Assembly (NCBI GenBank): GCA_965243855.1
Contig: CBDEWE010000003.1
Location: 1,474,610 to 1,538,609 of the forward strand
DNA length: 64,000 nt
Direction: 5' to 3'
Origin: an uncultured Candidatus Binatia bacterium
Lineage (GTDB): Bacteria; Desulfobacterota; Binatia; Bin18
Made by a program: the position numbers and the translations under genes. Positions 5,448-56,370 of the stretch are shown here, in pieces. The notes below the pieces were generated by a model, which worked only from the letters and a program-made list of their open reading frames with translations, made no database searches and was not told the origin of the DNA. Each line of letters starts with the position of its first letter. Positions within the stretch are counted from its first letter, which is position 1.

Positions 5448-5503
5448 CAAAGAGGAAACGTGTCCCGCATTGAGGGCTGTTTGGAGGACACGTTTCCTCT
5501 TTC
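5448..5503. repeat. family-A palindromic intergenic element, copy 1
   Basis: AGAGGAAACGTGTCC ... GGACACGTTTCCTCT arms (15 bp) around a ~21-bp loop. Lies between the DUF4178 gene and pspA. Confidence 0.9.
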
Positions 5504-5627
5504 CCTCCGAGGAGGGGATAAAAAAAGCTCCACTCTTGGGAGGGGTGGTCCTGAGCTTGTCGAAGGACCGGTGTGGGTGCCTTTTCGCATTACACGTCCG
5601 AGGAGGGGAAAGCGTTTCAACACAGGG

Positions 5628-6335
5628 CTATGCCGAAATCCCCATCTTAGCCTTGAGCGCGGTCAGGGAATCATTCGCCGTGGCGTTGCTTTGGCTCAGG
5701 GCCGCATCAATCTCGTTGTCCACGCTTTTATCGATATCGGCGACCTGGCCGTACGCCTGGGCCAAGGACTCGTCTTCCTCGACCTTGTCGCGCATCTTTT
5801 CCAGCATGGCAATCGTGCTGGAGGAGTCGATCTTGGCAAGCTGCTGGTTGATCTTCTTGGTCGAGGCTGCCGTGCGTGCCCGGGCCTTGAGGGTAATGAG
5901 ATCGTTCTCATATTTGGTAATCGTGGATTTCAGCTTCTCGATCTTACCCTGCAACTGGTTGGCCATATTGTCTTGATTTTCCCAGTCTTTCAGCGCCTGG
6001 GCAGCTTTCTGGCTGGATTCTTCTTTCTTTTTCAGAGCCTCTGTCGCCAAGCGCTCGGCTTCGGCCTGATCCATCTCACCACCCTGCATCTTTTGCAGCA
6101 GCAGCATGGCCTTGCGCTCATACTCGGCGGCCAGAGATTTGCTGCTATCCCCATCCTTTTTCAGGCGAATAGCGACGCTTTTGACCTCGGCCAAACTGGT
6201 CATGCTGGCTTGGAGATCGTTCTTGAGGTCGCGGATACCCTGCTCGGTCATACGGATAGGGTCCTCCATATTGTCAAGAACGGCGTGGGCTTCGGATTGT
6301 CCAATTTTAAATAAGCGTTGAAAAAAACCTGCCAT
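5628..6335 (-). CDS. pspA: PspA/IM30 family protein (phage-shock protein A-like)
   Basis: 235 aa, all-helical coiled coil. The N-terminus MAGFFQRLFKIGQSEAHAVLDNMEDPIRMTEQGIRDLK matches the conserved PspA/Vipp1 N-terminal amphipathic helix and first coiled coil. Confidence 0.85.
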   Translation of the reverse strand: MAGFFQRLFKIGQSEAHAVLDNMEDPIRMTEQGIRDLKNDLQASMTSLAEVKSVAIRLKKDGDSSKSLAAEYERKAMLLLQKMQGGEMDQAEAERLATEALKKKEESSQKAAQALKDWENQDNMANQLQGKIEKLKSTITKYENDLITLKARARTAASTKKINQQLAKIDSSSTIAMLEKMRDKVEEDESLAQAYGQVADIDKSVDNEIDAALSQSNATANDSLTALKAKMGISA

Positions 6336-6365
6336 AGTCTGTTCCTCCAGATTGATTAGTGCTTG

Positions 6366-6420
6366 AAAGAGTAAACGTGCCCAGCATCTGCATATTTATT
6401 GGAGGACACGTTTACTCTTT
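6366..6420. repeat. family-A palindromic element, copy 2
   Basis: AAAGAGTAAACGTGCCCAGCATCTGCATATTTATTGGAGGACACGTTTACTCTTT. Lies between pspA and the ybjN-like gene. Confidence 0.9.
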
Positions 6421-6809
6421 GTATAGGAGAGTAATTCTCCCGCATTCTCGGCCAAAGCCAAACTCAGTGCTTCAATCGAGCCTTCCAACTCATTGCTGTC
6501 CAGATTCTCGATGCGTAGCGTGTCACGAAAAAGGATGGTCTGCGTCTCTTCGTCCACCACAAAGGCGCCATGCACCAGAAGCCGGTTCATCTGCAGCAGG
6601 CGCCGGAATAAATTCCCCGGCTCCTGCGGAATGGGCATAATGACCTGCTCCAACACGAGCAGGGGGTCTTCGCAGTCAACGATGAGGTTGTTGATGCCGC
6701 TGTCTTCGTCATCGACGATAAACAACTCCTGGCCTTCGTCCTCTTGCGAAATCGCATAACCTAAATCAATCAGCAGCGATTTTACTTTCCCAAAATACTC
6801 TGACGGCAT
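6396..6809 (-). CDS. YbjN-domain protein (putative sensory transduction regulator fold)
   Basis: About 137 aa, acidic, with a YbjN-like pattern (GYAISQEDEGQELFIVDDEDS...LLVLEQVIMP). A GGAGGA ribosome-binding site sits 8 nt upstream of the Met at 6809. Confidence 0.55.
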   Translation of the reverse strand: MPSEYFGKVKSLLIDLGYAISQEDEGQELFIVDDEDSGINNLIVDCEDPLLVLEQVIMPIPQEPGNLFRRLLQMNRLLVHGAFVVDEETQTILFRDTLRIENLDSNELEGSIEALSLALAENAGELLSYTKSKRVLQ

Positions 6810-6827
6810 ACGTCGCTTCCTCCACAT

Positions 6828-7856
6828 TTATCCCTGGTTGGGGCGTTCCTGTCCGATAACGATGAGTTGATCTTCAGCCTGAATTATATAGTCGCTCGGC
6901 GGGTTTGCAAGAAACCTCGCCTGTGCCTGGCTTTCTACGGCTACAAGCAGGAGATTCTGTGCTCTTTTCAGTTCGGTCAGGGCGTCCATAAAAGAATGGC
7001 CAACGCAGGATTGCGGCACGGAAATGGTGTACAGGGCGCTCCCGAAGCGGTTGCTGACGAGTTCGTTGACCAGCAGGGGCACGCCACGGTTCAAGGCGGC
7101 CTGGACAAGCAAGTTGGTGCTCAATGCGCCGGTGACGATAACCTCATCCGCCTTTGCCCGCTTGCCGTGAGAAATATTTTTCTGGTCAAGCAGTTCGATG
7201 CAAATATACAGGCTCGGATAGGTGGTCTTGATGGTGAGCGTATCCAGGATTGTCGTGGCGTCCCGTGTATGGACCTCACCCTGTTCATCCGCCAGCACAA
7301 TGGCGACTTCCGCCTTTTGGGCATTGGCCCGTGCCAAGGTTTCCGGGCTGACGACTCCGCTGACAAATTGGACCTGTTCACCGTCCAAAGGATTCTCCGG
7401 TAAGTCGGCGATCAGCACAATCGAACGGTTCCGGGCTTTTTCGTCGGCTCTGACCTCTTCAATAATTTCCTTGGCCTTATAATTCCAGCCGCACAGGACA
7501 ATATGTCCCGTATTTGAGAGCGGTTTCATCCCTTTTCCCTCCTGCCGCCGGTTTTCAACAAAGGTGCTGGCTAAGGTGGCCGTCAGCATACCCAGAAACC
7601 CGATGCCGAACAGCATCAGAAAGATGCCGACGATCCGGCCTCCCAGCGAGGTCGGGTAGATATCGCCATAGCCGACCGTGGTAATGGTCACGAGCGTCCA
7701 CCATACCGCGTCCACCACAGATAACTGCGGCTCAAAAAACGAGATGCCCATCACCCCGCTGACGGCGATGACAACCAGCACCAAGAGGACTACGTCCAAA
7801 TGGTCTTTCCGTAGCTGGTGGGCGAAGCGTCTCAAAAGGACCAGGATAGTGGGCAT
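6828..7856 (-). CDS. K+ channel with RCK/TrkA-N domain (MthK-like)
   Basis: Two TM helices plus a pore helix with the canonical selectivity filter TVGYGD, then a Rossmann RCK domain (HIVLCGWNYKAKEIIEEV). Confidence 0.85.
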   Translation of the reverse strand: MPTILVLLRRFAHQLRKDHLDVVLLVLVVIAVSGVMGISFFEPQLSVVDAVWWTLVTITTVGYGDIYPTSLGGRIVGIFLMLFGIGFLGMLTATLASTFVENRRQEGKGMKPLSNTGHIVLCGWNYKAKEIIEEVRADEKARNRSIVLIADLPENPLDGEQVQFVSGVVSPETLARANAQKAEVAIVLADEQGEVHTRDATTILDTLTIKTTYPSLYICIELLDQKNISHGKRAKADEVIVTGALSTNLLVQAALNRGVPLLVNELVSNRFGSALYTISVPQSCVGHSFMDALTELKRAQNLLLVAVESQAQARFLANPPSDYIIQAEDQLIVIGQERPNQG

Positions 7857-7865
7857 GAGGACAGA

Positions 7866-8267
7866 TTATGATTTGTCCGGCTTTTCCACGGGAAGCCCGG
7901 CCTCGGCCCAGCCGTTAAAACCGGCTTCCAGATGCGCAATATTGGGAAAACCCATATCTTGTAAAGCATCGGCAGCCAGCGCCGACCGACCACCTGCGGC
8001 ACAGTACACGACAATACGTTTTTCGGGATCAACTTTTCCGGTACAATACTGAGAAGACGGGTCGAGCCAGAATTCCAGCATTCCACGCGGCACATGCATG
8101 GCGCTAGGAATCCAGCCCAGCTTCTGCCGTTCACGCACGTCTCGAATGTCAAGAAGCTGCGTCTCTCCGGACTCTAATTCCTGTTGTAACTGTCCCACGG
8201 ACAGGTTCTCAATACGCGTCTTTGCCTCCTCAACTATCTGCTCCGCGGTCTTCTTGAGTTTGAACAT
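7866..8267 (-). CDS. rhodanese-domain sulfurtransferase
   Basis: 133 aa with a rhodanese active-site loop (VVYCAAGGRSA) containing the catalytic Cys. Confidence 0.8.
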   Translation of the reverse strand: MFKLKKTAEQIVEEAKTRIENLSVGQLQQELESGETQLLDIRDVRERQKLGWIPSAMHVPRGMLEFWLDPSSQYCTGKVDPEKRIVVYCAAGGRSALAADALQDMGFPNIAHLEAGFNGWAEAGLPVEKPDKS

Positions 8268-8372
8268 ACCAGTCCTTTCTGCTGCATCTCCGCTGCAATG
8301 CTAGAAGGTTTCCTCAAGCACGGCTACTCCCTGTCTATGGATCGGAGCCTACATCTGTCTCCACATGTCTGC

Positions 8373-8642
8373 TTACTCCGGACGACAGGTCAGGCTATCC
8401 CGGGGAGCGTTCTGACAGGCAATGGTGTCGGTGACACCCGAGGCGAGCAGGGCGCAGGCATTGGTAATCGCCGCCATCTGGGCCTCATGCTCTGTCGCTC
8501 CGTCCACCTCGCGGCAGACCTGACGGCCGTGGAAGGTGATACAGACCTCACACCGCACCCCGCCTATCTGAAACGTCGAGTACACGACGATAGCCATCAC
8601 CGCCAGAATAATGCCAAGTGCCACCCAACTCGTCCGCTTCAT
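8373..8642 (-). CDS. hypothetical small membrane-anchored Cys-rich protein
   Basis: 89 aa with an N-terminal TM helix and six Cys including a CxxC (RCEVC). No recognisable family. Confidence 0.3.
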   Translation of the reverse strand: MKRTSWVALGIILAVMAIVVYSTFQIGGVRCEVCITFHGRQVCREVDGATEHEAQMAAITNACALLASGVTDTIACQNAPRDSLTCRPE

Positions 8643-8693
8643 AGTCAGGTCATATTCCTTTGTTTGTGAGACTGCTATATTTCCGCACGAACA

Positions 8694-8748
8694 AAAGAGT
8701 AAACGTATCCAGCATCTGTATGTCTATTGGAGGACACGTTTCCTCTTC
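8694..8748. repeat. family-A palindromic element, copy 3
   Basis: AGAGTAAACGTATCCAGCATCTGTATGTCTATTGGAGGACACGTTTCCTCT. Confidence 0.9.
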
Positions 8749-8796
8749 GGTGTGTAGCATAGCTCAAAATGCTCCGCAGCCGCTCCCACATCACCT

Positions 8797-10098
8797 ATGA
8801 ACTGGATTTGGTTCGGCCTTATTGTCGGTTCTGTTGTGACCGCCGCTTTTACCGGCAAGATGGCTGAGGTTACGGCTGCCTCAATAGACTCGGCAAAGTC
8901 CGCGGTGACACTGGCCATCGGTCTGGTCGGGGTGATGGCCTTTTGGTTGGGTATGCTGCGCATTGTGCAAGTTGGCGGTTTTCTGCACACCCTGGCGCGC
9001 TGGCTGCGTCCCCTCATGGTGCGATTGTTTCCTGACGTTCCGGCTGATCACCCGGCTCTGAGCGCCATGATTATGAATATCGCATCCAATATGCTGGGTC
9101 TGGGCAACGCGGCTACTCCCTTCGGTATCAAGGCTATGCAGGAGCTTGATAGCCTCAATCCTCATAAAGGCACGGCGACCAACGCTATGGCCTTATTCCT
9201 GGCTATCAATACCTCGAATGTTGCCTTGGCTCCCCTTGGTGTGATTGCGCTAAGGGCGTCGATAGGGTCAGAAAACGCGGCGGGTATTTGGCTGCCCACG
9301 CTGCTGGCCACCTCATTCTCGACCTGCGTTGGTATTCTCGCGGCCAAGCTCTTGCAGGGACTCCCCGTATTCAGCGCGGGCGACCGAGCCGCTGAGCAGG
9401 AAGAAAATACCTCTGAGATCGACTTGCCGGAAGAGGAAACACTGGGTGCTGAGCAGCCGACTTCCCGACCGGGCTGTCTGCTGGCCCTCTTGTCTGTTGG
9501 AGCGATTGGGGTCGCCTTTCTCTTGTTCCTGCAATCCGGCTTGAGCGACGGTCAGCCGATTGGTCCGCTGCTACGTAACGCCGTATCGGGCTGGCTTTTG
9601 CCAGTGCTGATCGTGGTGATGCTCGGCTACGGCATTGCCAAAAGAGTGGCTATGTACGATGCCATGATCGAAGGAGCAAAAGAGGGCTTCCAGGTGGCTA
9701 TTAGGATTATTCCGTTTCTTGTCGCCATTCTTGTTGCCGCTGGCATGTTTCGGGCTTCGGGTTTATTAGATGTGATGATCGCTGGCGTGCAGCCTGTTCT
9801 GGGCCTTATCGGATTTCCCGCCGAGGCATTGCCGATGGCCATCCTGCGGCCCTTATCCGGCTCTGGCGCCTACGCTATTATGGCCGAGATCCTGCAAGCC
9901 GAAGGGCCGGACAGTCTGGTTGGCTATCTCGTTTCCACACTCCAGGGCAGCACAGAAACGACTTTCTACGTTTTGGCCGTGTATTTTGGTGCGGTTGGCG
10001 TGGTCCGCATTCGACACGCCTTGGTCGCCGGATTGACCGCAGATATCGCTGGGGTTATCGGAGCAGTTATCGCCGTCCAGTGGCTATTAATAGGATGA
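8797..10098 (+). CDS. nucleoside-recognition (Gate) domain membrane protein, SpmA/SpmB-like fusion
   Basis: 433 aa polytopic membrane protein with two Gate-type halves. The Gly-rich motifs resemble spore-maturation A/B and FeoB-gate family proteins. Confidence 0.55.
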   Translation: MNWIWFGLIVGSVVTAAFTGKMAEVTAASIDSAKSAVTLAIGLVGVMAFWLGMLRIVQVGGFLHTLARWLRPLMVRLFPDVPADHPALSAMIMNIASNMLGLGNAATPFGIKAMQELDSLNPHKGTATNAMALFLAINTSNVALAPLGVIALRASIGSENAAGIWLPTLLATSFSTCVGILAAKLLQGLPVFSAGDRAAEQEENTSEIDLPEEETLGAEQPTSRPGCLLALLSVGAIGVAFLLFLQSGLSDGQPIGPLLRNAVSGWLLPVLIVVMLGYGIAKRVAMYDAMIEGAKEGFQVAIRIIPFLVAILVAAGMFRASGLLDVMIAGVQPVLGLIGFPAEALPMAILRPLSGSGAYAIMAEILQAEGPDSLVGYLVSTLQGSTETTFYVLAVYFGAVGVVRIRHALVAGLTADIAGVIGAVIAVQWLLIG

Positions 10099-10142
10099 CA
10101 GCCACTGGACGATATTCGTATCACGATTTTTTCAGACAGAGA

Positions 10143-11627
10143 TTACTCAGGAGATGGGGCCGTTTGGGCGCCAGTGCGTAATTCTTCCACATCGTCCGGG
10201 TCGGGCATGACAACAAACTCCGGATAGGCTTCGATGCCGAGCTCCATGGCATCCTGGCCGACCTCTTCGACGCTGCGCGAAACTCGGACCCCAAGGGTCT
10301 TTTCCAGTGCCAGCCAGACTCCCCACGAAGTCACGAAGACGAACACGCCCACGGCCACCACTCCGAGGATCTGTACGCCGATATTGCCGCCCGCCGCGAT
10401 GCAGACTGCCAGCGTTCCCCAAGCACCGGCGAACATATGGGCTGGAATCGCACCGACTACATCGTCCAGCTTCATATTCTCCAGCAGCCTCATGCCGCCC
10501 AGACATACCACCCCGCCAATCGCTCCGATGATGACCGCCCAATACGTCTCCACAATATCCGGTCCTGCGGTAATAGAGACGAGGCCGGCAATCGCCCCGT
10601 TGAGAACGGCAAGCAGGTCGATTCGCCCGAGTAAGGGGCGTGAGACGCATAAGGCAGCCACAACCCCCGCGGCCGCCGCAAGGTTCGTGTTGGCAAGTAC
10701 ATTACTCATGGCCACAGCGTCAGTCACGCCACCCAGGGCGAGTTGTGAGCCACCGTTAAAGCCAAGCCAGCCAAACCACAGAATGAGCACGCCTAATGTC
10801 ACGAACGGGACGTTCGAGGGAGGGGTGGGTTTGACGCTGCCGTCAGGTCGGAATTTACCCATTCGTGGACCCACGACTATGGCACCGGCCAGCGCCGCCC
10901 AGCCGCCGGTCGAATGGACGATAGTGGAGCCGGCAAAGTCCTGAAACCCCATTTCATTCAGCCAGCCTCCACCCCAAGTCCAGGCTCCAATAATGGGATA
11001 GATGATTGCCGTCAAAACGGTTGTGAAGGCAAGAAACGACCACAGCCTGACCCGTTCGGCCAGGGTGCCGGATACAATCGAGGCAGCCGTCGCGACAAAG
11101 ACCATCTGGAAGAACCAGTCCGACATGACGGCGTAGCCGTTGGCGATGACAGCGGCCAGAGCCTCTGTCTGGTCGGACAACAGGGCCAGTTCATCGGCCG
11201 AAGGGCCGTACAGAAGGGTCACCGAGCCGACCCAGGACCCGACATCGACGTACATCAGATTGTAGCCGATGAAGTAGTAGGCCAGTCCTGCAACCGAGTA
11301 CAGCCCGATATTCTTGAGACAGATCACAGAAGCATTCTTCGTGCGCACCGAGCCCGACTCCAGCATGGTAAAGCCCGCACACATCCACATCACCAGCGCT
11401 CCCCAGATGAGAAACGAGAAGGTGTTCAGAACAAACTGTGACTCTTCATCCACGGCCGCCTGTGCAGCATCAGCCTGTAACAGGATGCTGAAAGCCACTA
11501 GCAACGCTCCTGTTCTCACGACACTCCGACCGGCGCTCCCTCGTCCATCTCTGCCTCTGTTCATGCTCGCCTCCAATCCTGTTTCGACTAACTGGCTGCC
11601 ACAAGAACTACGAACAAGCGGGTGCAT
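10143..11627 (-). CDS. amt: ammonium transporter (Amt family)
   Basis: 11 TM helices with Amt signature regions (DFAGSTIVHSTGGWAALAGAIVVGPRMGKF; the twin-His region VLNGAIAGLVSITAG). Signal-peptide-like N-terminus. The true start may be the internal Met at ~11561. Confidence 0.9.
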   Translation of the reverse strand: MHPLVRSSCGSQLVETGLEASMNRGRDGRGSAGRSVVRTGALLVAFSILLQADAAQAAVDEESQFVLNTFSFLIWGALVMWMCAGFTMLESGSVRTKNASVICLKNIGLYSVAGLAYYFIGYNLMYVDVGSWVGSVTLLYGPSADELALLSDQTEALAAVIANGYAVMSDWFFQMVFVATAASIVSGTLAERVRLWSFLAFTTVLTAIIYPIIGAWTWGGGWLNEMGFQDFAGSTIVHSTGGWAALAGAIVVGPRMGKFRPDGSVKPTPPSNVPFVTLGVLILWFGWLGFNGGSQLALGGVTDAVAMSNVLANTNLAAAAGVVAALCVSRPLLGRIDLLAVLNGAIAGLVSITAGPDIVETYWAVIIGAIGGVVCLGGMRLLENMKLDDVVGAIPAHMFAGAWGTLAVCIAAGGNIGVQILGVVAVGVFVFVTSWGVWLALEKTLGVRVSRSVEEVGQDAMELGIEAYPEFVVMPDPDDVEELRTGAQTAPSPE

Positions 11628-11678
11628 GCAGTCTCAGGCAAGGCCAGACTCATGCATTTATTCTAGGGAGGGAAGTCC

Positions 11679-11990
11679 TCAGACCGACAAGGTTTCGGAC
11701 TTCTCTACCGTATATTTCTTTGCATCCAGGGCTCCCGCCAGCAGGCTAGGGGCTTCTTTGAGAAAATTTTGCAGATGCTCGGTCTGAAAGTGGGCGGCAA
11801 GCGCCTCTTCCGACTCCCATTCCTCGAAGAGGAAGAAGGTATGTTCGGTGGTTGCCGCAGTGTGGAATTGATAACTGATGCAGCCCGGCTCTTTGAGCGT
11901 CTCCTCCACCATGTTCGCAGCAAGTGCCTTGGCGTCATTCCAGCGTTCGGCCTTGACCGGGATTGTCCCCGCAATAACGATCATGCGCAT
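11679..11990 (-). CDS. ABM (antibiotic-biosynthesis-monooxygenase-like) domain protein
   Basis: 103 aa with a ferredoxin-like ABM pattern (ISYQFH...FFLFEEWESEEALAAHFQTEH). Confidence 0.65.
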   Translation of the reverse strand: MRMIVIAGTIPVKAERWNDAKALAANMVEETLKEPGCISYQFHTAATTEHTFFLFEEWESEEALAAHFQTEHLQNFLKEAPSLLAGALDAKKYTVEKSETLSV

Positions 11991-12180
11991 CCTCCTTATC
12001 CGTTGAAAGATCGGTCGGCTAAGATCACGGTAGACTTGAACTCAGGAGAGAAGAAGAAAGCGGGAAATAATACAAGGGGATGTAACCGGAGTCAGACTTT
12101 ATGCATAGAACTACCGGTAACGTCTGTCAAACAAATAATTTTTTGAAACCGTCTGAGGAATGAATTACAAAAATAAATAT

Positions 12181-12194
12181 TAGACTATAGTCAG
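12181..12194. promoter_or_regulatory. TAGACTATAGTCAG palindrome upstream of the enoyl-CoA hydratase gene
   Basis: Same GACTATAGTC core, about 145 bp upstream of the 12329 start codon, in an AT-rich promoter region. Confidence 0.4.
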
Positions 12195-12328
12195 AAACGA
12201 ACATTCCAGAATTTTGGGGTTATCCATTCAGTTAAAAATGGACACTTTCCGACATGCCTGCTTTGTGAACTTCACGAGAAAAGCAGGGAAAGATGCAGTG
12301 AGGGTCATATCACCAGAAGGAGGGCGCG

Positions 12329-13198
12329 ATGTCGGATTTTGAATCTATTATGTATGAGACCCCTGTGGAGCATATAGCTCGCATTGTATTGAACCGGCCA
12401 GAAACTCGAAACGCACAGGATACCAAGCTGCTGTATGAATTGAATGCGGCCTTTGACCGTGCGGCACAAGATGATGCCATCAAGGTCATTATCCTGGCTG
12501 CAAACGGACCTCATTTTTCGTCCGGCCATGATCTGCGAGAGCCTAAAGTGTACGAGAAAATGTCTGAATTCGAGACGGTGGGAACCTGGTGCGGGTTTAC
12601 CTGTGCGGGTGCCGAGAGGCAGATGGCGCGCGAGAAAGAAATCTACGTTGGCTTTTGTGAACGCTGGCGTAATATTCCCAAGCCAACGCTGGCCGCAGTA
12701 CAAGGCAAGGTTATTGCCGGAGGACTGATGCTGATCTGGCCCTGCGATATCATTATCGCCAGCGGCGATGCGCAATTCTGCGACCCGGTGGTGAACTTTG
12801 GTATTGGCGAGGTAGAGTTTTTCGCTCACCCCTGGGAAGTCGGCGCGCGGAAGGCCAAAGAGATGCTCTTCACCTCAGACTGGATATCGGTCGAAGAGGC
12901 GAAGCAACTCGGCATGGTAAATCAAATCGTCCCTCGGGAGAAACTCGACGAAACCGTATTAGCCATGGCCCAAAAGATTGCAAAAAAATCCCTGTTTGCC
13001 CTGAAGCTGACCAAAGAGGCGGTCAACGTGGCGGAAGATGCGCAGGGTCGAGTCCAATCCATGCAAACGTCTTTTGCCTTGCATCAACTTGCCCACACCC
13101 ACTGGCTGGAGCAGTATGGCGTACTCTTGGACCCAACCGGCTTACCGCCTGAAACGGCCAAAGCCATCGGCGCAAAACTCAAGCAGAAAGAGACCTGA
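12329..13198 (+). CDS. enoyl-CoA hydratase/isomerase (crotonase) family protein
   Basis: 289 aa with crotonase-fold oxyanion-hole motifs (VIILAANGPHFSSGHDL; AAVQGKVIAGGLMLIWPCDIIIAS). Confidence 0.8.
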   Translation: MSDFESIMYETPVEHIARIVLNRPETRNAQDTKLLYELNAAFDRAAQDDAIKVIILAANGPHFSSGHDLREPKVYEKMSEFETVGTWCGFTCAGAERQMAREKEIYVGFCERWRNIPKPTLAAVQGKVIAGGLMLIWPCDIIIASGDAQFCDPVVNFGIGEVEFFAHPWEVGARKAKEMLFTSDWISVEEAKQLGMVNQIVPREKLDETVLAMAQKIAKKSLFALKLTKEAVNVAEDAQGRVQSMQTSFALHQLAHTHWLEQYGVLLDPTGLPPETAKAIGAKLKQKET

Positions 13199-13205
13199 GG
13201 ACGAG

Positions 13206-13260
13206 CAAAGAGGAAACGTGTCCAGCATCTCAACGCTATTGGAGGACTCGTTTCCTCTTC
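13206..13260. repeat. family-A palindromic element, copy 4
   Basis: AGAGGAAACGTGTCCAGCATCTCAACGCTATTGGAGGACTCGTTTCCTCT. Lies between the convergent enoyl-CoA hydratase and LLM genes. Confidence 0.9.
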
Positions 13261-13263
13261 GAG

Positions 13264-14289
13264 TCAGGGGACTGTTTTCCAGCCTCCCTGGGGCTGGATG
13301 TTTTTGGCTTCAGGGATCACGCTGGTGCTAAACTGCTGCATCTGGTCTTCAAGCTCGGACAGTTGTCCGGACGGGCAGTCAAAGAAACATACCATCAGTC
13401 CATAGCCTTCTTTGGCAAAACCGTGGAGGTCTTCGAGGATTTGTTCTGCCGTGCCCGTACAGATGCGGCGTGGTTGCTCCTGACTGAGAGGATCGGACGG
13501 TGAGGTGAGGCGGGCCGAACTCACGCCCATCATGATAAACTCATCGTGCGGACGACCGATTGCATCCAGCTCTTTTCGGATCAACGCTTGTTCTTTGGTG
13601 TAACGGTCCGGCCGTGCAAAGGGGTCGAGGAAAATCGGATAAAAGCCGTCGCATAAGCGTGCTGCCCGTCGGGCGCCGCCAGGGGTGACGCCGCCATAGA
13701 TAATCGGGGGTGGCTGTTGCAGCGGCTTGGGGTCCATGGACAGCGAGGCAAACTGATAAAAACGGCCTTGGTAGCTGACGACATCGTCCGTCCACGAGCG
13801 CTTGTAGACCTCTATACATTCGTCGGTCCGCGGGCCACGCTCGGCATAGGGAATACCGATTGCGCCGAACTCCTCCTGCATCCAGCCGGCCCCGACTCCG
13901 AACAGCAGCCGCCCTTTTGAGAGCTGATCGATGGTCGCAAACTGGCGGGCGTCGCTGAGCGGATTGCGATAAGGAGAAATGAGGACACTCGTGCCGAGCT
14001 TGAGGCTGGTCGTCGTATGGGCAACGGCGCCCATCACCACGGCGGCATCGAACATGGTATGGCGCGGCTCGTAGGCTCGGCTGCCTGAGGCGTTAGCGAC
14101 ATGCTCGCTTTCCGAGGCCATAGGCATACACACATGGTCCGGAAACCACATGGAGTGAAAGCCAAGGTGTTCAGCGAGCTGGGCGGTTTCTATTGGCTGG
14201 AGCTGATCCGCAGGAAGGGAACGGGCCAGTACGTTCTGGTCATCCCGATAGGCCAGACCGTGCGTAGTCGCATATATACCAATTTCCAT
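13264..14289 (-). CDS. LLM-class F420/flavin-dependent oxidoreductase
   Basis: Luciferase-like motifs (MEIGIYATTHG start, LKLGTSVLISPYRNP, GRLLFGVGAGW). Start chosen at the internal Met; the ORF is open to 14325. Confidence 0.7.
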   Translation of the reverse strand: MEIGIYATTHGLAYRDDQNVLARSLPADQLQPIETAQLAEHLGFHSMWFPDHVCMPMASESEHVANASGSRAYEPRHTMFDAAVVMGAVAHTTTSLKLGTSVLISPYRNPLSDARQFATIDQLSKGRLLFGVGAGWMQEEFGAIGIPYAERGPRTDECIEVYKRSWTDDVVSYQGRFYQFASLSMDPKPLQQPPPIIYGGVTPGGARRAARLCDGFYPIFLDPFARPDRYTKEQALIRKELDAIGRPHDEFIMMGVSSARLTSPSDPLSQEQPRRICTGTAEQILEDLHGFAKEGYGLMVCFFDCPSGQLSELEDQMQQFSTSVIPEAKNIQPQGGWKTVP

Positions 14290-14492
14290 ATGTCTCCCCG
14301 TGTGCAATAGCTTCATGCTGCGCAATATTCAATTTGGATATCCATACTGCCTCCTGCCTGCGATCTTTACCACACTCGGGAATCGGGCTCAACGAAACGA
14401 GCGGTGCGAAACAGGCTGACTTTGCTTTCTTGACCCGTGTGGTCTATGCTCCGGCCAAAGAAGCGTACATTCCCTGTGTTGAGGAGAGGATT

Positions 14493-15800
14493 ATGAATTG
14501 GCGTGATCAATGTGGTGACAAACTGGTCTCTGCTCAAGAGGCGGTCGGGTGCGTGCGGAACGGCGACTCCGTACAGTTCAACTGGCTGCACGCAACTCCG
14601 CTCTCGCTGTGCGAGGCTCTTCTTGGGCGCAAAGAAGAGCTGCGCGAGGTAAAAATTGGAACCATCGGTCCGCTCTTCGATTGGGACCAACTTGGTGCAG
14701 ACCAAGCCTTCACCATTCAGACTCCTTATCTGGGTACGACCACCCGTCCGCTCATGGGAAGAAAGAATATGGACTTCATTCCGGTGATGTATTACCGCCG
14801 GGGTGAACTCCCTCCAGGCATAGTCTGCGACGTGTATATGACTCCGGTTTCCGCGCCCGACAAGCACGGCTATTGCAGTTTTGGACATAGCTTATTCATG
14901 TCCAAAACGATGGCTGCCGCGGCTCGGACAGTCGTAGCCGAGGTCCAGGAAGACTTTATCCGAACCGGCGGAGAGAATTATATTCATGTGTCTGAGATCG
15001 ATTATTTTGTAGAGTCCACGCGGCCTGCGGCCGAACTCCCGGCCACTCAACGTAGCGAAGAAGAAACTGCTATGACCGAGGTCATCTGCACCCTGGTTGC
15101 CAACGAACTCATTCACGACGGTGATACTATCCAAATCGGTTTGGGCAGCGTTTCCTCCCCGCTCGGTATGTATTTAGGCAATAAGAATGACCTGGGTATT
15201 CACACCGAGGTCATTCCCGGCGGCATTGCCCGCCTGGTGAAGGAAGGCGTTATTACCGGGAAATACAAGACGGTGAACCCCGGTAAGGTCGTTGCCAGTG
15301 CCGGGATTGGGGTGTTCCCGGATGAGCTGTCGATTATCGACGGAAACCCGAAGTTTGAGTTTTACGACTTCACCTACACGGATGATTTACGGCTGTTGGT
15401 CAATCAAGAGCACTATGTTGCCGTCAATAACGCCCTCGCCGTAGACCTGGGCGGGCAGGCTTGCTCCGAGTCGTTCGGTCCGTTTATGTATACCGGAACG
15501 GGTGGCCAGACCATTTTTACTATCACCGCGGCCTACTGTAACCCCGGTCGGTCGGTGATTGTCACGCCGTCGAGCGCCGAGGTCAACGGCCGCCGGGTCT
15601 CGCGGATTGTGCCTATGCTTGAGCCTGGCAGTGTGGTGACCGCGCAGCGGACCTTTGTTGACTATGTGGTGACCGAATTCGGGATCGCCGAACTCAAGGG
15701 CAAGTCCCTCAAGCAGCGTGCGGCTGCGCTCCTGGAGGTTGCCCATCCCGATTTCCAGCCGGACCTCAGACGTGAAGCCGAGCGCATTTATCACATATAG
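14493..15800 (+). CDS. acetyl-CoA hydrolase/transferase family protein (4-hydroxybutyrate CoA-transferase-like)
   Basis: About 435 aa. Two-domain CoA-transferase pattern with C-terminal motifs ([10 protein letters not shown]; [10 protein letters not shown]; [18 protein letters not shown]). Confidence 0.7.
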
Positions 15801-23474: not shown

Positions 23475-23530
23475 AAAAGAGTAAACGTGTCCTCCAATAG
23501 ACAGGCAGATGCTGGACACGTCTACTCTTT
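23475..23530. repeat. family-A palindromic element, copy 5 (inverted loop orientation)
   Basis: AGAGTAAACGTGTCCTCCAATAGACAGGCAGATGCTGGACACGTCTACTCT. Lies between the DMGO-like gene and coxG. Confidence 0.9.
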
Positions 23531-23971
23531 GAAATGTTTTGCAACGTTCCGGGCGAACTCGGCCACGATTTTGTCTGCCTTTTTCCGAATCACGGGCTGG
23601 CCGAACTCGCCCAGTTTGCCCATAAGCCGGGCTTCGGTCTGGATGGACAATTGGGTTTGCGCCTCTTCTTGTTCAACTAAAGTCAGCTCGGCACTGATAT
23701 GGACGCCGCCGCCAACGCGGCGGTCGTTTGCTTCCGCTCTGCCGACCGCACGCCAATTTGTTTGATCGAGTTCCTGTATGCTCAACTCGCCCTGTAAGGT
23801 GAGTCGAATAGGGCCGAATGTCACTTTCATCCGACCCGCGTATTGATCCTCACCGGCGGCGACAACCTCACTTACCCCAGGCACACAGGTCGCCATTTGA
23901 GGAACATCCATAAGAAAGTCCCACAGGGTTTCGCGCGCAACCGGGACGGTACAGCTATGCTCGAAGTTCAT
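23522..23971 (-). CDS. coxG: CoxG-like SRPBCC protein (carbon-monoxide-dehydrogenase subunit G family)
   Basis: 149 aa. It lies directly downstream of coxM in the operon. SRPBCC-like pattern. Confidence 0.65.
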   Translation of the reverse strand: MNFEHSCTVPVARETLWDFLMDVPQMATCVPGVSEVVAAGEDQYAGRMKVTFGPIRLTLQGELSIQELDQTNWRAVGRAEANDRRVGGGVHISAELTLVEQEEAQTQLSIQTEARLMGKLGEFGQPVIRKKADKIVAEFARNVAKHFKE

Positions 23972-27632: not shown

Positions 27633-27699
27633 AGTCAGACGCTACCTAAAGTACGGATATCGTCATGAATCCTTTTCGCAGTCAAGCGCCGTGGGTGTT

Positions 27700-27786
27700 T
27701 GTTGAGTCGGTTGAGTCTTGACCCAAAAGACTCAAAAGACTCAAAAGACTCAATAGACTCAATAGACCCAATAGACCCAAAAGACT
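27700..27786. repeat. family-B tandem-9-mer palindromic element, copy 1
   Basis: GTTGAGTCG GTTGAGTCT TGACCCAAAA then GACTCAAAA x3, GACTCAATA x2, GACCCAATA, GACCCAAAA. The left 9-mers are the reverse complement of the right 9-mers. Lies upstream of coxL. Confidence 0.9.
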
Positions 27787-27815
27787 TCCTTTGCCTATGG
27801 GAGCGAGTGAGTGGG

Positions 27816-29565: not shown

Positions 29566-29817
29566 ATGGCAACAAAAAAAGATATCGCCCTGGTAAGAGA
29601 ATTACGGCCCAGTAACCCAACGGAAGAACAGGTACCAGCCAAGGAGCCCTCCCTCATAGAAGAATTTCGGCTCACGAGCCTGGCAGCGGAATTTGAGCAG
29701 CATAGCCAAGCAGAAATCGAACGTTTGGGTGGTGAGAATCCTGATTTTGACGAGCAACTCTACCACGAAGCCGTTTCCCTCGTCCTGCGGAAACTCAGCC
29801 GATATCGAAAAGAGTAA
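29566..29817 (+). CDS. hypothetical small acidic protein
   Basis: 83 aa with no recognisable domain. Its 3' end runs into a family-A palindromic repeat. Confidence 0.3.
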   Translation: MATKKDIALVRELRPSNPTEEQVPAKEPSLIEEFRLTSLAAEFEQHSQAEIERLGGENPDFDEQLYHEAVSLVLRKLSRYRKE

Positions 29818-29858
29818 ACGTAGCCTCCAATTGAGATGCTGGATACCTTCACTCTTTT
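29809..29858. repeat. family-A palindromic element, copy 6 (degenerate, inverted)
   Basis: AGAGTAAACGTAGCCTCCAATTGAGATGCTGGATACCTTCACTCTTTT. Immediately upstream of the SMC-like ATPase gene. Confidence 0.75.
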
Positions 29859-32144: not shown

Positions 32145-32150
32145 GGGTCC

Positions 32151-33391: not shown

Positions 33392-33392
33392 A

Positions 33393-33443
33393 ATGAGTAA
33401 ACGTATCCAGCATCTGCATGTTTATTGGAGGACACGTTTACTT
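33393..33443. repeat. family-A palindromic element, copy 7
   Basis: GAGTAAACGTATCCAGCATCTGCATGTTTATTGGAGGACACGTTTACT. Lies between the acyl-CoA dehydrogenase and SDR genes. Confidence 0.9.
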
Positions 33444-33526
33444 ATCGGGACAGCATAAGAGTGAGCGGTTGCTCTTATGCTGCTCGGTCTTTGAGGGGCC
33501 AGTCGGCCCTGACTGAAGGAGGGCCC

Positions 33527-39400: not shown

Positions 39401-40226
39401 TAACTTCGATATCCGAAAACATCTGCTGGAATATGATGATGTGATTAACAAACAGCGTGAAGTCATCTATGAGCAGCGCCGGGGATTCCTGGCCGGTGAA
39501 AATTTGAAAGGTCAGGTACTGGAAATTGTTGAAGAGATGGCTGAAGAAAGTGTGCTGAACTATGCGGATAAAGGAATCGACCCGGCGGAGTGGGACTGGA
39601 AAGGGCTTGATGACACGGTGTTTCGCCAATTCAATATGCGTCTTGGCTTGAGTGAGGAACAGCAAGAAGAGCTGATAACGGAAGATCTCCAGGACCTTGT
39701 GCGAGACCGGGCGCTCCAACACTATGAAGAACGAGAACAGGCTTTTACACCACCTGTTATGCGGTATCTCGAAAAGGTGATCATGCTACAAACCATGGAC
39801 AGTCTGTGGAAAGACCACCTGTTTGCCATGGACCACCTTAAAGAGGGGATTGGTCTGCGCGGCTACGGTCAGAAAAACCCCCTGCAAGAGTACAAGAAAG
39901 AGGCATTCAGTCTGTTCGACGACCTCTCCCGTCGGATGCAGGAAGATATTGTTGAAAAGCTCTATAGCGTCCAGGTGGCCCGCCAGGAAGATGTCCAGCG
40001 GATGGAGGAAGGGCAGGCTGCACAACGGCCTATGCAGATGATGCACGGCGGACAGGCAACGCTCCAACAACCACAGTCGGCAACACGACCTATGCAGGGG
40101 GGACCGAATGGACAGCCACAGACGGAACGACCTGTCCAAGCCGTACGGGATACGCCCAAGGTTGGTCGGAACGCACCCTGTCCGTGTGGTAGCGGCAAGA
40201 AATACAAGAAGTGTCACGGCGCATGA
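36489..40226 (+). CDS. secA: preprotein translocase ATPase SecA, with a ~300-aa insertion in NBD2 and a C-terminal zinc finger
   Basis: [21 protein letters not shown] start. DEAD-motor motifs ([13 protein letters not shown]; DEVD; [10 protein letters not shown]; [27 protein letters not shown]). C-terminal [14 protein letters not shown]. 1245 aa versus about 900 aa for typical SecA. Confidence 0.95.
38511..38586. repeat. family-B element, copy 3, inside the secA coding sequence and in frame
   Basis: GTTGAGTCC GTTGAGTCA TCGAGTCG GTTGAGTCT TGACCCCAAAGACCCTAAAGACTCAACAGACCCAAAAGAC, translated as [25 protein letters not shown] within SecA. Confidence 0.9.
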
Positions 40227-45963: not shown

Positions 45964-46017
45964 AAAGAGTAAACGTGTCCAGCATCTGCCTGTCTATGGG
46001 AGGATACGTTTACTCTT
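45964..46017. repeat. family-A palindromic element, copy 8
   Basis: AAAGAGTAAACGTGTCCAGCATCTGCCTGTCTATGGGAGGATACGTTTACTCTT. Lies between gatC and yraN, 70 bp from a family-B copy. Confidence 0.9.
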
Positions 46018-46085
46018 CGCGGTAGGCCGGTCGTCGGAGGACGCTCTTGATCCACGCAAGCCGTGTCAGCTACCCTGTATGTGTT

Positions 46086-46178
46086 CGTTGAGTCCGTTGA
46101 GTCTTTAGGGTCTTTGGGGTCAAGACTCAACAGACCCAATGACTCAACAGACCCAATGACTCAACAGACCCGAAAGAC
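46086..46178. repeat. family-B element, copy 4
   Basis: GTTGAGTCC GTTGAGTCT TTAGGGTCTTTGGGGTCAAGACTCAACAGACCCAAT GACTCAACAGACCCAAT GACTCAACAGACCCGAAAGAC. Lies between gatC and yraN. Confidence 0.9.
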
Positions 46179-46184
46179 ATCGTT

Positions 46185-46565
46185 ATGGTGAGAGGCGACC
46201 GGCGACGCCTGTTCGGCCAACACGGCGAGCAACGCGCCGCACAGTTTTTACAGAGCCTCGGCTATAGGATAGTGAACCGAAATTATCGATGCCCTCGCGG
46301 AGAAATTGATCTCGTTGCGCAGGATAAAGGAACCATTGTCTTCGTGGAGGTTCGGACGCACCGCTCTCAGGAGTTCGGAAACCCTCTCGCCTCAGTAAAC
46401 AAGCGGAAGCAACGCCAAATCGCCATGACTGCCCTCCATTATCTTTCACGTTTTCACCTCCATGACCACGCTGCACGATTTGACGTCATTGGAATTATAG
46501 GGGAAGGAGAGGCTGCGCAGCTGACCCATATCAAAGAGGCTTTTGAATTCCCAATCTCACGATAA
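46185..46565 (+). CDS. yraN: YraN family (UPF0102) endonuclease-like protein
   Basis: About 126 aa with a PD-(D/E)xK-like core (GEIDLVAQDKGTIVFVEVRTHR). Confidence 0.8.
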   Translation: MVRGDRRRLFGQHGEQRAAQFLQSLGYRIVNRNYRCPRGEIDLVAQDKGTIVFVEVRTHRSQEFGNPLASVNKRKQRQIAMTALHYLSRFHLHDHAARFDVIGIIGEGEAAQLTHIKEAFEFPISR

Positions 46566-49877: not shown

Positions 49878-50675
49878 ATGGCGGAAATGGCCTCAGCTGC
49901 CACGCGAGTCGAGGTGACGCTCAAGAAGGCGACCGGCCCAGGCGATGATAAGGTCCATACCTGGCCGAATCTGGTTCGAGCAGAATTCCTCTGCACCCTG
50001 TTTACGATTATCTTCCTGCTTTTATGGTCACTGCTGGTCGATGCGCCGCTTGAAGAGCCGGCCGACCCTGGGCGCACGCCCAACCCGTCCAAAGCGCCCT
50101 GGTATTTCCTTGGACTGCAAGAAATATTGGTCTTTTTCGATCCCTGGCATGCCGGAGTGGTTGCGCCCACCTTTATAATCATGGGACTGATGGTCATTCC
50201 CTACATCGATATCAATCCCAAGGGAAACGGCTATTACACTTTTAAGGAACGGAAATACGAAATCATAACCTTTATCTTTGGTTTCCATGTCCTATGGATT
50301 TCAACCATTATTATTGGCACCTTTGTCAGGGGGCCGGGCTGGAACTGGTTTTGGCCTTGGGAGGTGTGGGATGCGCACCTGGTTGAAGCCTTGACCAACC
50401 AGGATCTGCCTTATTTGGTTGGTATCCGAGATTACTGGACTGCGGCGGTTTTCGGCCTGTCGCTCATTATTGGTTTCTTTGTGCTGGGTACCGCTGCCAT
50501 GTATTGGTGGGTGGTGTGGCTCAAGGGGCGTGAATTCATGCAGCGCTGGGGTGCGGCTCGGTTTTTCTTAACGTCATTTCTCACGCTGAACATGATTGCC
50601 GTAGTGATTAAGATGCTCCTACGTCATATACTGAATGTAAAATATATTTTAGTTACGCCGTGGATTAATGTCTGA
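49878..50675 (+). CDS. petD: cytochrome b C-terminal domain protein (subunit IV / PetD-like)
   Basis: PNPSKAPWYFLGLQEIL, the PEWY-type Qo-site motif, followed by additional TM helices. Confidence 0.8.
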   Translation: MAEMASAATRVEVTLKKATGPGDDKVHTWPNLVRAEFLCTLFTIIFLLLWSLLVDAPLEEPADPGRTPNPSKAPWYFLGLQEILVFFDPWHAGVVAPTFIIMGLMVIPYIDINPKGNGYYTFKERKYEIITFIFGFHVLWISTIIIGTFVRGPGWNWFWPWEVWDAHLVEALTNQDLPYLVGIRDYWTAAVFGLSLIIGFFVLGTAAMYWWVVWLKGREFMQRWGAARFFLTSFLTLNMIAVVIKMLLRHILNVKYILVTPWINV

Positions 50676-50729
50676 AAAGGGTAAACGTATCCAGCATCTC
50701 ATATCTATAGGAGGACACGTTTACTCTTT
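50676..50729. repeat. family-A palindromic element, copy 9
   Basis: AAGGGTAAACGTATCCAGCATCTCATATCTATAGGAGGACACGTTTACTCTTT. Directly after the petD-like stop. Confidence 0.9.
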
Positions 50730-54544: not shown

Positions 54545-54558
54545 TTGACTATAGTCAA
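54545..54558. promoter_or_regulatory. second TTGACTATAGTCAA palindrome
   Basis: Identical 14-bp core, 109 bp downstream of the first. Confidence 0.5.
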
Positions 54559-55063
54559 TTATATTTTGTAAATCAAAGACTATTTCAATTGGGGGAGGAC
54601 CCTGGAAACCACTAAGGAGAAGACAGCCCATTCGGCTCCGTCTACATAGGATCGCAACAACGCTAACACTGTCTTGGCTTTCATTCAGTGCAGGTCTTTC
54701 ATAATCCACTCGCGCAGCGGATTATCATTATTGCACGCCTCCACCTAGAGCAAGTGACGATTCTGCGTAGCTGCTGGTCATTTCGCTGGAATGACCAGGT
54801 ATCCAGACCTCTAGCCCCCGGCCTCTGGATGGCCGGATCATGTCCGATATGACGTGAGGGTAGCGACATGGCTAGAACTTATCGTACAACGTGCGAGTGT
54901 CCCTCAGGCGCTGGTTTCGGATGTAGAGCCTTACAACGTGCATTCTGACAGAGGATGGGCTGGCAGTTGCCCTTGAATACTTCTTATTTACACCAGGATA
55001 TCTTCAGACCGACTATAATTTTACAAAATATATATTATCAGACATAATGTATAATATAAAAAC

Positions 55064-55720
55064 TCACTTGTCCGTCTTGGTGCGAACTACCTCAGCCAAT
55101 GGAGAGTCGGGGAATTGCTCTAACAAATCAACATACGCTTGCGGCACTGTAGCCTCCCCCTGTCGCTCTAAGACTTCTCCCAGGGCCAGGAATGCTTCAC
55201 TCTTGCCTGGTCCATCCAGCCGAGAAGCTTCTTCGTACCACTGGGCCGCGGCAGCGAACTCCTCAGCTTCTTCCGCCCCTTGACCCAAACGTAAGAGCGC
55301 AATCTGTTTCAAATACGGTCCAGCATCATGAAACGCGGCGACTCGCTCGTAGGCAGCCATCGCCTCGGCTGGCTGATTGCTCTTCTCAAATACTTCCCCT
55401 AAGTGCAAGGCGGCGACTCCCCTACTCTCGCGGTCAAGCACCGCTTCTGCCTGGGCGAGTTCGGCAATCGCCACATCGTACTCTTCCGATTCAATGGCAA
55501 GGAGTCCAGCACGGAAATATGCCAGCCCCTGACTATGACGATACTGTGTCCAGGTGGCCCAGGAAATACCGGATATGGCGCATACCACAACAACAACGCC
55601 CCCAAGGACAATCTGCCGTTTGTAATGCATGATAAGGCCCGACCGCTGCCGGAACCATTCAATCAAACGTGCCGAGGGGTATGAAGATGGAGACAGCTCT
55701 TGCTTACGACTGCGCGCCAT
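55064..55720 (-). CDS. TPR-repeat membrane-anchored protein
   Basis: N-terminal TM helix, then several 34-aa TPR-like repeats (AYFRAGLLAIESEEYDVAIAELAQAEAV...). Confidence 0.6.
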   Translation of the reverse strand: MARSRKQELSPSSYPSARLIEWFRQRSGLIMHYKRQIVLGGVVVVVCAISGISWATWTQYRHSQGLAYFRAGLLAIESEEYDVAIAELAQAEAVLDRESRGVAALHLGEVFEKSNQPAEAMAAYERVAAFHDAGPYLKQIALLRLGQGAEEAEEFAAAAQWYEEASRLDGPGKSEAFLALGEVLERQGEATVPQAYVDLLEQFPDSPLAEVVRTKTDK

Positions 55721-55749
55721 GGACCGTACCGAGTTGTCGCTGAAAGAGA

Positions 55750-56268
55750 CTACATCTTGTACTTAAAGTCGTCTGGAGACATCTTCTCCAGGATCTCTGC
55801 CCATTTATCCCGAGAGACACTCGACAAATCAGCCTCTTCCTCACTGTCTTCCGTCTGCTCGAGTACGCTCGATGACTCAAGCACCTGGGTTGCCACAAAG
55901 ATGGGACATTTTGTTCGCAGCGCAAGCGAGATCGCATCACTCGGCCGAGAGTCAATCGAAATGTCTCGTTCCCCGACCTTGAGGCGAATGGCGGCATAAT
56001 ACGTGTTGTCCTGGAGACTCGTCACCTCAATGGCCTCGACCCTGCCCCCAACCTCTTTGATCATATTGTGGAGCAAGTCATGGGTCATGGGACGCGCCAT
56101 TTTGATCCCCTCCAGCTCAGTCGCCATTGAGGTCGCTTCCATCAAACCAATCCAAATCGGCAGGTTGAGCTTGTTCTCTGCATCTTTCAGGATGACGATT
56201 GGGGTCTTGGTCACCGGGTCGAGCGTCAACCCGCCGACTTTCATTTCGATAAAACCCTCGCGGTCCAT
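55750..56268 (-). CDS. bifunctional nuclease family protein (BFN/DUF151 domain)
   Basis: MDREGFIEMKVGGLTLDPVTKTPIVILKDAENKLNLPIWIG is the conserved BFN-domain N-terminus. Acidic C-terminal tail. Confidence 0.7.
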   Translation of the reverse strand: MDREGFIEMKVGGLTLDPVTKTPIVILKDAENKLNLPIWIGLMEATSMATELEGIKMARPMTHDLLHNMIKEVGGRVEAIEVTSLQDNTYYAAIRLKVGERDISIDSRPSDAISLALRTKCPIFVATQVLESSSVLEQTEDSEEEADLSSVSRDKWAEILEKMSPDDFKYKM

Positions 56269-56330
56269 TCCTCCTCCATTTGCGTGAGATCACAAAAAGG
56301 ATAGCACCTTCAAGAGAACATGCCTACCGC

Positions 56331-56370
56331 AAAGCGCAAACGTGTCCAGCATATTATGTCTAGGCGGTCA
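56331..56370. repeat. family-A element, truncated half-copy 10
   Basis: CAAAGCGCAAACGTGTCCAGCATATTATGTCTAGGCGG. Left arm plus loop only, between the BFN nuclease and coxE. Confidence 0.6.

Follow-up and report, generated by a model that had tools for sequence, protein, structure and literature searches.

Repetitive extragenic palindromes (REPs) are units of 20-40 bp with stems of 8-9 bp (CGTC families), loops of 4-5 nt and an unpaired terminal GTAG or CGTC tag; they adjoin the 3' ends of open reading frames (ORFs), supply stop codons and occur within genes, often those of UvrD- and RecB-type repair proteins, and the CGTC type has no known transposase (Di Nocera et al. 2013, PMC3733652). Bacterial MITEs (miniature transposable elements with inverted repeats), such as Correia/CREE, ERIC, Chunjie and QMITE, are defined by terminal inverted repeats, target-site duplications and a related insertion sequence (IS) (PMC10969869). 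Rickettsia palindromic elements (RPEs), as far as they are described in two later articles, are inserted in frame in genes, RPE-1 measuring about 100-150 bp (Ogata et al. 2000, via PMC10969869 and PMC3733652). The present analysis concerns a 64,000-nucleotide stretch of DNA from an uncultured Candidatus Binatia bacterium (contig CBDEWE010000003.1, positions 1,474,610 to 1,538,609; hereafter the window) and a hairpin repeat, usually of 54 nt, which it carries at ten loci. These copies probably belong to a family of short palindromic DNA elements, selfish, non-autonomous and specific to the lineage, designated here "Binatia palindromic elements". The family is read as previously undescribed; it behaves like REPs and Rickettsia RPEs and falls outside the definitions of REPs, MITEs and terminators.

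An earlier note, made from the letters of the window alone, had reported ten similar hairpin repeats with 15-bp arms. The existence of the family was borne out: the 15-nt arm AGAGTAAACGTGTCC, searched with up to 2 mismatches, matched 18 times in the window as against 0.06 matches expected from shuffled sequences, and the loop motif matched 5 times as against 0.01 expected. A profile hidden Markov model (HMM) built from 8 copies retrieved exactly 10 window loci, eight of them full, one degenerate and one only half of the unit. The arms are longer than proposed. The stem is formed by 17 nt per arm with 100% complementarity (AAAGAG...CTCTTT), the bases flanking the 15-mer core being A (84%) and A (98%) on the left and T (100%) and T (84%) on the right. 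The unit consists of AAAGAGKAAACGTRTCC, a loop of about 20 nt and GGAYACGTTTMCTCTTT, usually 54 nt in total; the loop measures 20 nt in 98 and 21 nt in 47 of 169 copies, giving units of 54 or 55 nt. A longer palindrome reaching into the flanks was rejected, the positions just outside the stem being less complementary than chance. The computed folding energy of the unit is -26 to -29 kcal/mol as RNA (z about -7) and about -17.5 kcal/mol as DNA.

The conservation that the note had attributed to arms and loop alike is found in the arms; the loop is far less conserved and splits into subfamilies, all of which carry the loop ends AGC...TTGGA. Since the HMM scores the two orientations of this asymmetric loop very differently (about 60-70 bits versus about 20 bits), its orientation can be called in each copy. 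Both orientations occur, as had been stated, with 8 window copies forward and 2 reverse (23476 and 29809). Most window copies are located 0-30 nt past a stop codon and two of them do bracket pspA. The statement that the copies are always intergenic holds loosely in the window, in which two copies (6366-6420 and 23476-23530) encode the final codons and the stops of genes, and it does not hold for the family, about 11% of which lies in frame in genes. The window is an unselected sample, in which the density is 10 copies per 64 kb. The copies are the following, L numbers designating sampled loci.

5449..5502 (+): full copy, 54 nt, with the stop-free G-C arm variant, loop CGCATTGAGGGCTGTTTGGA, 17-nt arms of 100% complementarity and 20 nt between the arms; downstream of pspA, within a composite of other palindromic repeats; the orthologous site in L054 is filled.
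6366..6420 (+): full copy, 55 nt, between a YbjN-like ORF and pspA; encodes the last 7 codons and the stop (KSKRVLQ-stop) of ORF 6396..6827 (-); cleanly absent at the orthologous site of L083.
8694..8748 (+): full copy, 55 nt, in a spacer between same-strand genes; orthologous copies in L056 (same loop orientation) and L083 (loop flipped).
13207..13260 (+): full copy, 54 nt, between the convergent genes 12329..13198 (+) and 13264..14325 (-).
23476..23530 (-): full copy, 55 nt, reverse loop, between convergent genes; supplies KE-stop of the CoxG-like ORF 23522..23971 (-).
29809..29857 (-): degenerate copy, 49 nt, the loop measuring 15 nt and the arms being mismatched at several positions (HMM 37.6 bits); just upstream of the SbcC/Rad50-like gene at 29880.
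33392..33446 (+): full copy, 55 nt, arm ends altered to AATGAG / CTTAT; 1 nt past the acyl-CoA dehydrogenase stop (ORF end 33391), the 15-nt arm core at 33394 being 3 nt away.
45964..46018 (+): full copy, 55 nt; lies upstream of gatC in a divergent spacer, a 9-mer palindromic array being about 55 nt away.
50676..50729 (+): full copy, 54 nt, directly after the stop of ORF 49878..50675, the 15-nt arm core at 50678 being 3 nt away; orthologous copy in L084.
56331..56362 (+): truncated copy with only the left arm and a loop-like stretch (HMM 20.4 bits, HMM positions 3-37); abuts the stop codon of the VWA/CoxE-like gene 56360..57772 (-).

To analyze the distribution of the repeat, the GTDB species representatives, one genome each, were scanned in 8-kb blocks for the exact pattern. 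At least 110 blocks contained matches and, among the matches listed, all came from 18 Candidatus Binatia assemblies, one of which is labelled Thermodesulfobacteriota; the family is therefore dispersed and not the product of a local duplication. The HMM detected 174 non-overlapping copies in the window and the loci, and 186 when later loci were added. Besides the copies by which they were seeded, the loci hold about 54 copies in 0.88 Mb, and the number per genome of 4-5 Mb may fairly be put at a few hundred, as an estimate and not a count. Relatives with MnmG at least 89% identical carry 2-3 copies per 12 kb, and none is detected, even at E <= 10, in the syntenic mnmG regions (3 x 22 kb) of relatives with MnmG 74-77% identical. 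The family is confined to one Binatia subclade. Rfam gave no gathering-score match over the whole window and none at E <= 1 over three copies. The literature searched for Binatia/Binatota with repeat terms and for the arm sequence contained no earlier description of the element and reported no repeat family for Binatia. No pattern match was detected in the IMG/VR viral contigs and carriage by phages was rejected.

To follow the fate of single copies, the 200-nt flanks of every copy were compared by BLAST with all other loci. These comparisons yielded 159 filled/filled and 80 filled/empty orthologous pairs. In 38 of the latter the difference is a single clean indel, most commonly of 54 nt (17 cases), which corresponds to the block running from AAAGAG to CTCTTT. 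Copies are freely present or absent between close species; the window itself is without copies that L098 and L083 carry, the matching window sites being 42555-42566 and 11610-11621. The mobility suggested by the earlier note was confirmed by this clean presence or absence at orthologous sites, which includes a gain in mnmG confined to the closest relatives. In the 38 clean indels, the insert and its junction have 0 nt of homology in 24 cases, 1 nt in another 11 and 2 nt in the remaining 3, and a target-site duplication is therefore absent. Tested directly at every offset with k = 1-4, the flanks of 141 copies (those with distinct flanks) gave no duplication signal at k >= 2 and only a weak 1-nt identity (53 versus 35 expected). 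The empty sites have no obvious consensus in common. Some differences are partial deletions, as in L112, where a 51-nt loss takes most of the element together with 9 nt of mnmG. These results show that new copies arise via insertion of the exact palindrome, without target-site duplication, at many unrelated sequences.

The label of REP/MITE-like mobile element, under which the family was first noticed, was right in kind as regards mobility. By the definitions given above, the copies are not REPs, having no GTAG/CGTC tag, a 17-bp stem and a 20-nt loop, and they are not MITEs, having no duplication. If they were classical MITEs, the copies would have arisen by deletion from an IS that has the same terminal inverted repeats and whose DDE transposase moves them; the arms do resemble 17-bp terminal inverted repeats and the unit lies towards the lower limit of MITE sizes. 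Against this origin, no duplication was detected in the 38 filled/empty comparisons or in the flank statistics, 324 of the 328 arm matches lie within hairpins while the other 4 bound no transposase, and the sample holds no multi-copy transposase family, which makes a MITE family highly improbable. An artefact of sequencing or assembly (adapter hairpins, chimeric joins) was considered solely since the unit is a perfect hairpin and many of the assemblies are long-read metagenome-assembled genomes, with nothing specific in its favour. It is effectively refuted: copies recur in assemblies that were made independently and by different pipelines (chromosome-level records, short-read k141 contigs, Logan, ENA), orthologous copies share their flanks and diverge with them, and coding copies maintain the reading frame.

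Copies deep within long ORFs, which are conserved genes, turned up during the classification of gene context. Genes were called with a codon-usage-scored ORF caller, and a copy was considered as coding when an open frame ran through it and the codon-usage scores were positive on both sides. Under this definition, 20 of 182 copies (about 11%), from about 12 independent sites, are in-frame coding insertions, in the genes of MnmG (twice), MnmE, an MrpA-like antiporter subunit, a UvrD-like helicase and an AddB-like nuclease. The in-frame copy reads as an 18-residue insert, for example RGNVSSNRHEMLDTFPL, with the usual peptide (R)GNVSS-x6-DTFPL. Compared with E. coli MnmG, the MnmG of L049 contains two extra segments, RGNVSSNRHEMPDTFPLQ and KRGDVSSNRHEMLDTFPL, exactly at the two copies, and the MnmG orthologues of 657, 639 and 620 aa differ by two 18-aa inserts. 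The first insert is common to proteins 89-100% identical to the query and the second is present only in the 98-100% identical group, both being absent in other relatives (e.g. a 620-aa orthologue of 89% identity) and in E. coli. In the DNA, both inserts are cleanly delimited blocks of 54 nt, AAAGAGG...CCTCTTY, whose flanking sequences are contiguous in the empty alleles.

At both MnmG insertion points, other orthologues bear unrelated indels. In the distant orthologues P0030 and P0054 (alignment columns 128-150 and 547-565), these are unrelated insertions of 8-18 aa; the insertion of P0054 at the second site is 18 aa long and might be a decayed copy or a different element. The structure model of the 657-aa MnmG was mediocre (predicted local distance difference test score, pLDDT, 64.5; predicted template modelling score, pTM, 0.51). 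In this model the inserts (residues 130-141 and 548-561) fall in low-confidence coil, as do many other segments, which weakly suggests a placement in surface loops.

The operon rnpA-yidC-jag-mnmE-mnmG-rsmG, in which insertions occupy spacers of 3-12 nt, also differs between species by copies in the yidC-jag and jag-mnmE spacers and by a copy within mnmE (465 versus 483 aa), and one copy replaces the C-terminus of MnmG and gives its stop codon. The MnmG tails encoded by the element read KRKRVLQ-stop in L111 and RRRVLQ-stop in L049; in the window, the YbjN-like ORF ends in the same manner in KSKRVLQ-stop and the CoxG-like ORF receives both its KE tail and its stop. The stop-free arm variant AAAGAGGAAACG (G-C) is found in 15 of 20 coding copies versus 38 of 160 others, a pattern which is expected if selection filters insertions. 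Copies persist where the harm is small, namely in short spacers past stops, in overlap with stops, in operon spacers and in frame (about 1 in 10).

The comparison of orthologous filled sites revealed further changes after insertion. In 27 of 73 such pairs (37%), including pairs with flanks 96-99% identical, the loop has the opposite orientation with the arms in place; in MnmG this flip converts the peptide NRHEML to ISCLLE. Arm position 7 is a T-A pair in 112 copies, a G-C pair in 53 and mismatched in 11, and at orthologous sites it changes between T-A and G-C in 9 pairs, with GA/TC intermediates in 10 pairs. Among 3060 stem cells, 2840 are Watson-Crick, 74 are G-T and 146 are mismatched, values which are inflated by the choice of most loci through the exact arm pattern. 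After insertion, the two arms change together and the loop often flips orientation. By analogy with what is generally known of quasipalindromes, flips and co-variation would result from template switching or from arm-to-arm correction inside the palindrome. Over all copies, transitions concentrate symmetrically at arm position 14, a hotspot at which T replaces the C of GGACAC in 24 copies and A replaces the corresponding G of the opposite arm in 19. G-T or A-C pairs are far commoner at this position than elsewhere in the stem except at the terminal position 1 (24 G-T, 23 A-C), and deamination of a methylated C is a possible cause of the hotspot.

Between orthologous copies the identity is 94% for the arms, 91% for the loop and 92% for the flanks, and between random non-orthologous copies it is 90% for the arms and 71% for the loop. 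Because the loop diverges like the flanks and falls to 71% between non-orthologues, its similarity points to descent from a few source sequences with vertical inheritance; judging from these identities, it appears to be mostly shared descent within subfamilies, with no exceptional constraint. The proposal of the earlier note that loop conservation marks a protein-binding site is consequently not supported. In its wider form, the copies would be DNA binding sites for a host protein (a nucleoid protein, gyrase, IHF as at bacterial interspersed mosaic elements (BIMEs), or a recombinase) with the loop as recognition site, and both the near invariance of the arms over 18 assemblies and the recurrence of AGC...TTGGA in every subfamily speak for it. 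This is very unlikely: the loop flips in more than a third of the orthologous pairs and diverges like its surroundings, the conservation of the arms is partly due to locus selection, copies within ORFs and rapid turnover speak against fixed architectural sites, and no partner protein was identified.

The gene context of the copies (96 co-directional, 17 convergent and 27 divergent spacers) resembles the background of the same loci (525, 116 and 123, respectively), so that spacers on the promoter side are not shunned. In 58% of the distances measured towards a facing stop, the copy lies at most 20 nt from the stop or overlaps it; the zone near stop codons is also where most of the free space lies in these compact genomes. 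Relative to the neighbouring genes, the AGCATCT...TTGGA strand is sense in 34 copies and antisense in 67 (p = 0.001, uncorrected for orthology). A replication-linked orientation was rejected, loop orientation having no link with the local GC skew (36 versus 30). The 2:1 bias may stem from the avoidance of GGAGG, a Shine-Dalgarno-like motif which the forward orientation makes in the transcript. A terminator role is not indicated: a simple terminator scan flagged none of the copies in 5000-14000, the loop is of 20 nt, the sole T run (CTCTTT) belongs to the stem, and copies occur within operons and within ORFs. A canonical terminator-like hairpin with a T run is located at 13278-13298 (+) of the window (TCCAGCCTCCCTGGGGCTGGA TGTTTTTGG), 18 nt downstream of the copy at 13207-13260 and inside the start of ORF 13264..14325 (-).

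These data bear on the idea that the copies are RNA elements selected by the host, i.e. stable hairpins at 3' ends for termination, mRNA protection or processing, as proposed for REP/BIME, whose benefit drives their spread. The very stable RNA hairpin, the 58% of stop-facing distances which are short or overlapping, the position of most window copies within 30 nt past a stop and the orientation bias are all in its favour. Yet none of the scanned copies is flagged as a terminator and the 20-nt loop is followed by no real U-tract, insertions are found in the 3-12 nt spacers of the conserved operon yidC-jag-mnmE-mnmG-rsmG and in frame in essential genes, the spacer split resembles the background, and copies come and go freely between close species. 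A host-selected origin is therefore judged unlikely. An RNA-level function is compatible with the data as a secondary, acquired role, and the hairpin of -26 to -29 kcal/mol probably has side effects on mRNA 3' ends.

As to the mechanism, an enzyme acting in trans would move the element by working on hairpin or cruciform DNA. The best guess, a tentative one made by analogy, is a single-strand-DNA transposase of the HUH/Y1 type, of the REP-associated tyrosine transposase (RAYT)/IS200 kind, because such systems leave no duplication and because exact excision at the stem foot resembles IS200/IS605 and REP-RAYT. Copies flanking a transposase were looked for and rejected, the genes bracketed by two copies (in L009, in L047 and pspA in the window) being LOG-like, LeuD-like and PspA, with no RAYT among them. 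In locus L115, from a Binatia-like lineage without the hairpin element, the interval from parB to the atp operon contains a DDE_Tnp_1 transposase gene (14499-15380), which is unassociated with the family. It is also conceivable, if rather doubtful, that the element is the minimal substrate of an undescribed insertion pathway, in which a 54-nt hairpin is cut and pasted at almost any sequence without duplication by an enzyme other than RAYT/IS200; candidates would be a new HUH enzyme or a structure-specific enzyme, nuclease or ligase, that works on extruded cruciforms. If such a pathway were true, the same chemistry would make the in-place loop inversions, and the elements would continually bring 18-residue insertions and new C-termini into core proteins of one Binatia clade.

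The reading of the copies as a lineage-specific family of selfish, non-autonomous palindromic elements is given a probability of about 0.72, and several points weigh against it. Since most loci were picked via the exact arm pattern, the conservation of the arms and the pairing percentages are inflated, and the lack of independence among orthologous copies makes the p-values optimistic. A precise loss and not a gain could underlie many of the presence/absence differences, the polarity being firm only at the mnmG sites. The orientation bias implies some selection at the RNA or translation level, and the element is therefore not purely neutral DNA. On the side of the enzyme, tblastn with approximate queries for IS200 TnpA and E. 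coli RayT, a weak test covering about 0.94 Mb of the sampled DNA, gave no match, the multi-copy protein families of the sample are metabolic paralogues (CoA-transferases, enoyl-CoA hydratases, FKBPs) with no transposases among them, and no IS with these ends is seen in the sample since nearly all arm matches lie in hairpins.

Binatia are uncultured and known only from metagenomes. The literature hints at a possible association with sponges, and a search of papers for the accession numbers gave no match. With many dated gains, losses, loop inversions and compensatory arm changes over at least 18 related assemblies, the family suits the study of duplication-free hairpin movement and of hairpin upkeep. 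It indicates that an RPE-like, in-frame colonisation of essential genes occurs also in a lineage with free-standing genomes of 4-5 Mb. The copies yield false ORF extensions, new stops and length variants of marker proteins (MnmG of 620, 639 and 657 aa), and they could be used as markers for the typing of Binatia strains.

Other repeats were observed in the same region. A second, unrelated family forms arrays in which 9-bp units are repeated first as (GRGTCNNTT)n and then, inverted, as (AANNGACYC)n, the whole array being palindromic. It was found at the following positions.

Window: 27695-27798, 32144-32215, 38495-38598 and 46071-46191.
L068: 56-110 and 7127-7263.
L070: 7461-7506.
L089: 2081-2136 and 5203-5239.
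L104: 4559-4609.

Three of the four window arrays end just before an ATG-containing TATGG, and one of these ATG codons is the called start of a UPF0102 gene at 46185. The array at 38495-38598 lies in frame within the window SecA (36489-40226, 1245 aa), in the larger of two additions relative to E. coli SecA: about 296 aa are inserted between residues 569 and 866, the other addition being about 50 extra residues near the N-terminus. Some hairpin copies are adjoined by other palindromic modules in mosaic blocks (window 5400-5620; L018 1460-5100 and 6050-7600). These modules are CCCTCCGAGGAGGG, GGGTGGGTT...AACCCACCCC and a terminator-like GCGGGC...GCCCGC with T and A runs; L018 is largely a non-coding block dense with them.

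Compared with the known systems, the element departs from an intrinsic terminator, with its G+C-rich stem, 3-8 nt loop and U-tract, in not combining these features. With bacterial MITEs it has in common a short non-coding unit with inverted ends (here 17-bp arms), the entry into operons and ORFs and a presence varying between strains or species; it differs in lacking a target-site duplication, and no parent IS was seen in the sample. REPs leave no target duplication, and neither does the Binatia element; both are present in high copy number, mostly extragenic near the 3' ends of ORFs, and sometimes supply stop codons or lie in genes. The Binatia unit is distinguished from REPs by its 54 nt, its 17-bp stem and its loop usually of 20 nt, and by its paired AAAGAG/CTCTTT ends, the flanks of which carry no conserved tag. 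In plastid DNA, hairpin-loop "flip-flop" inversions, like quasipalindrome template-switch mutation, repeatedly invert the loop between two arms, and the arms are corrected mutually. Loop inversion at the same site and arm correction are shared with these systems, which are fixed hairpins and not a mobile multi-copy family. In the accounts available, RPEs are, like the present element, a dispersed palindromic family of one bacterial lineage, with copies between genes and in frame in unrelated housekeeping genes, to which they add a conserved peptide, and with no known transposase. The likeness is one of behaviour: the Binatia element is of 54 bp versus about 100-150 bp for RPE-1 in these accounts, the host lineage is unrelated, and the element has a single 17-bp stem, a flipping 20-nt loop and about 11% of intragenic copies. 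Hairpin repeats colonising gene ends and ORFs are already known in other bacteria, and what is new is this lineage-restricted variant.

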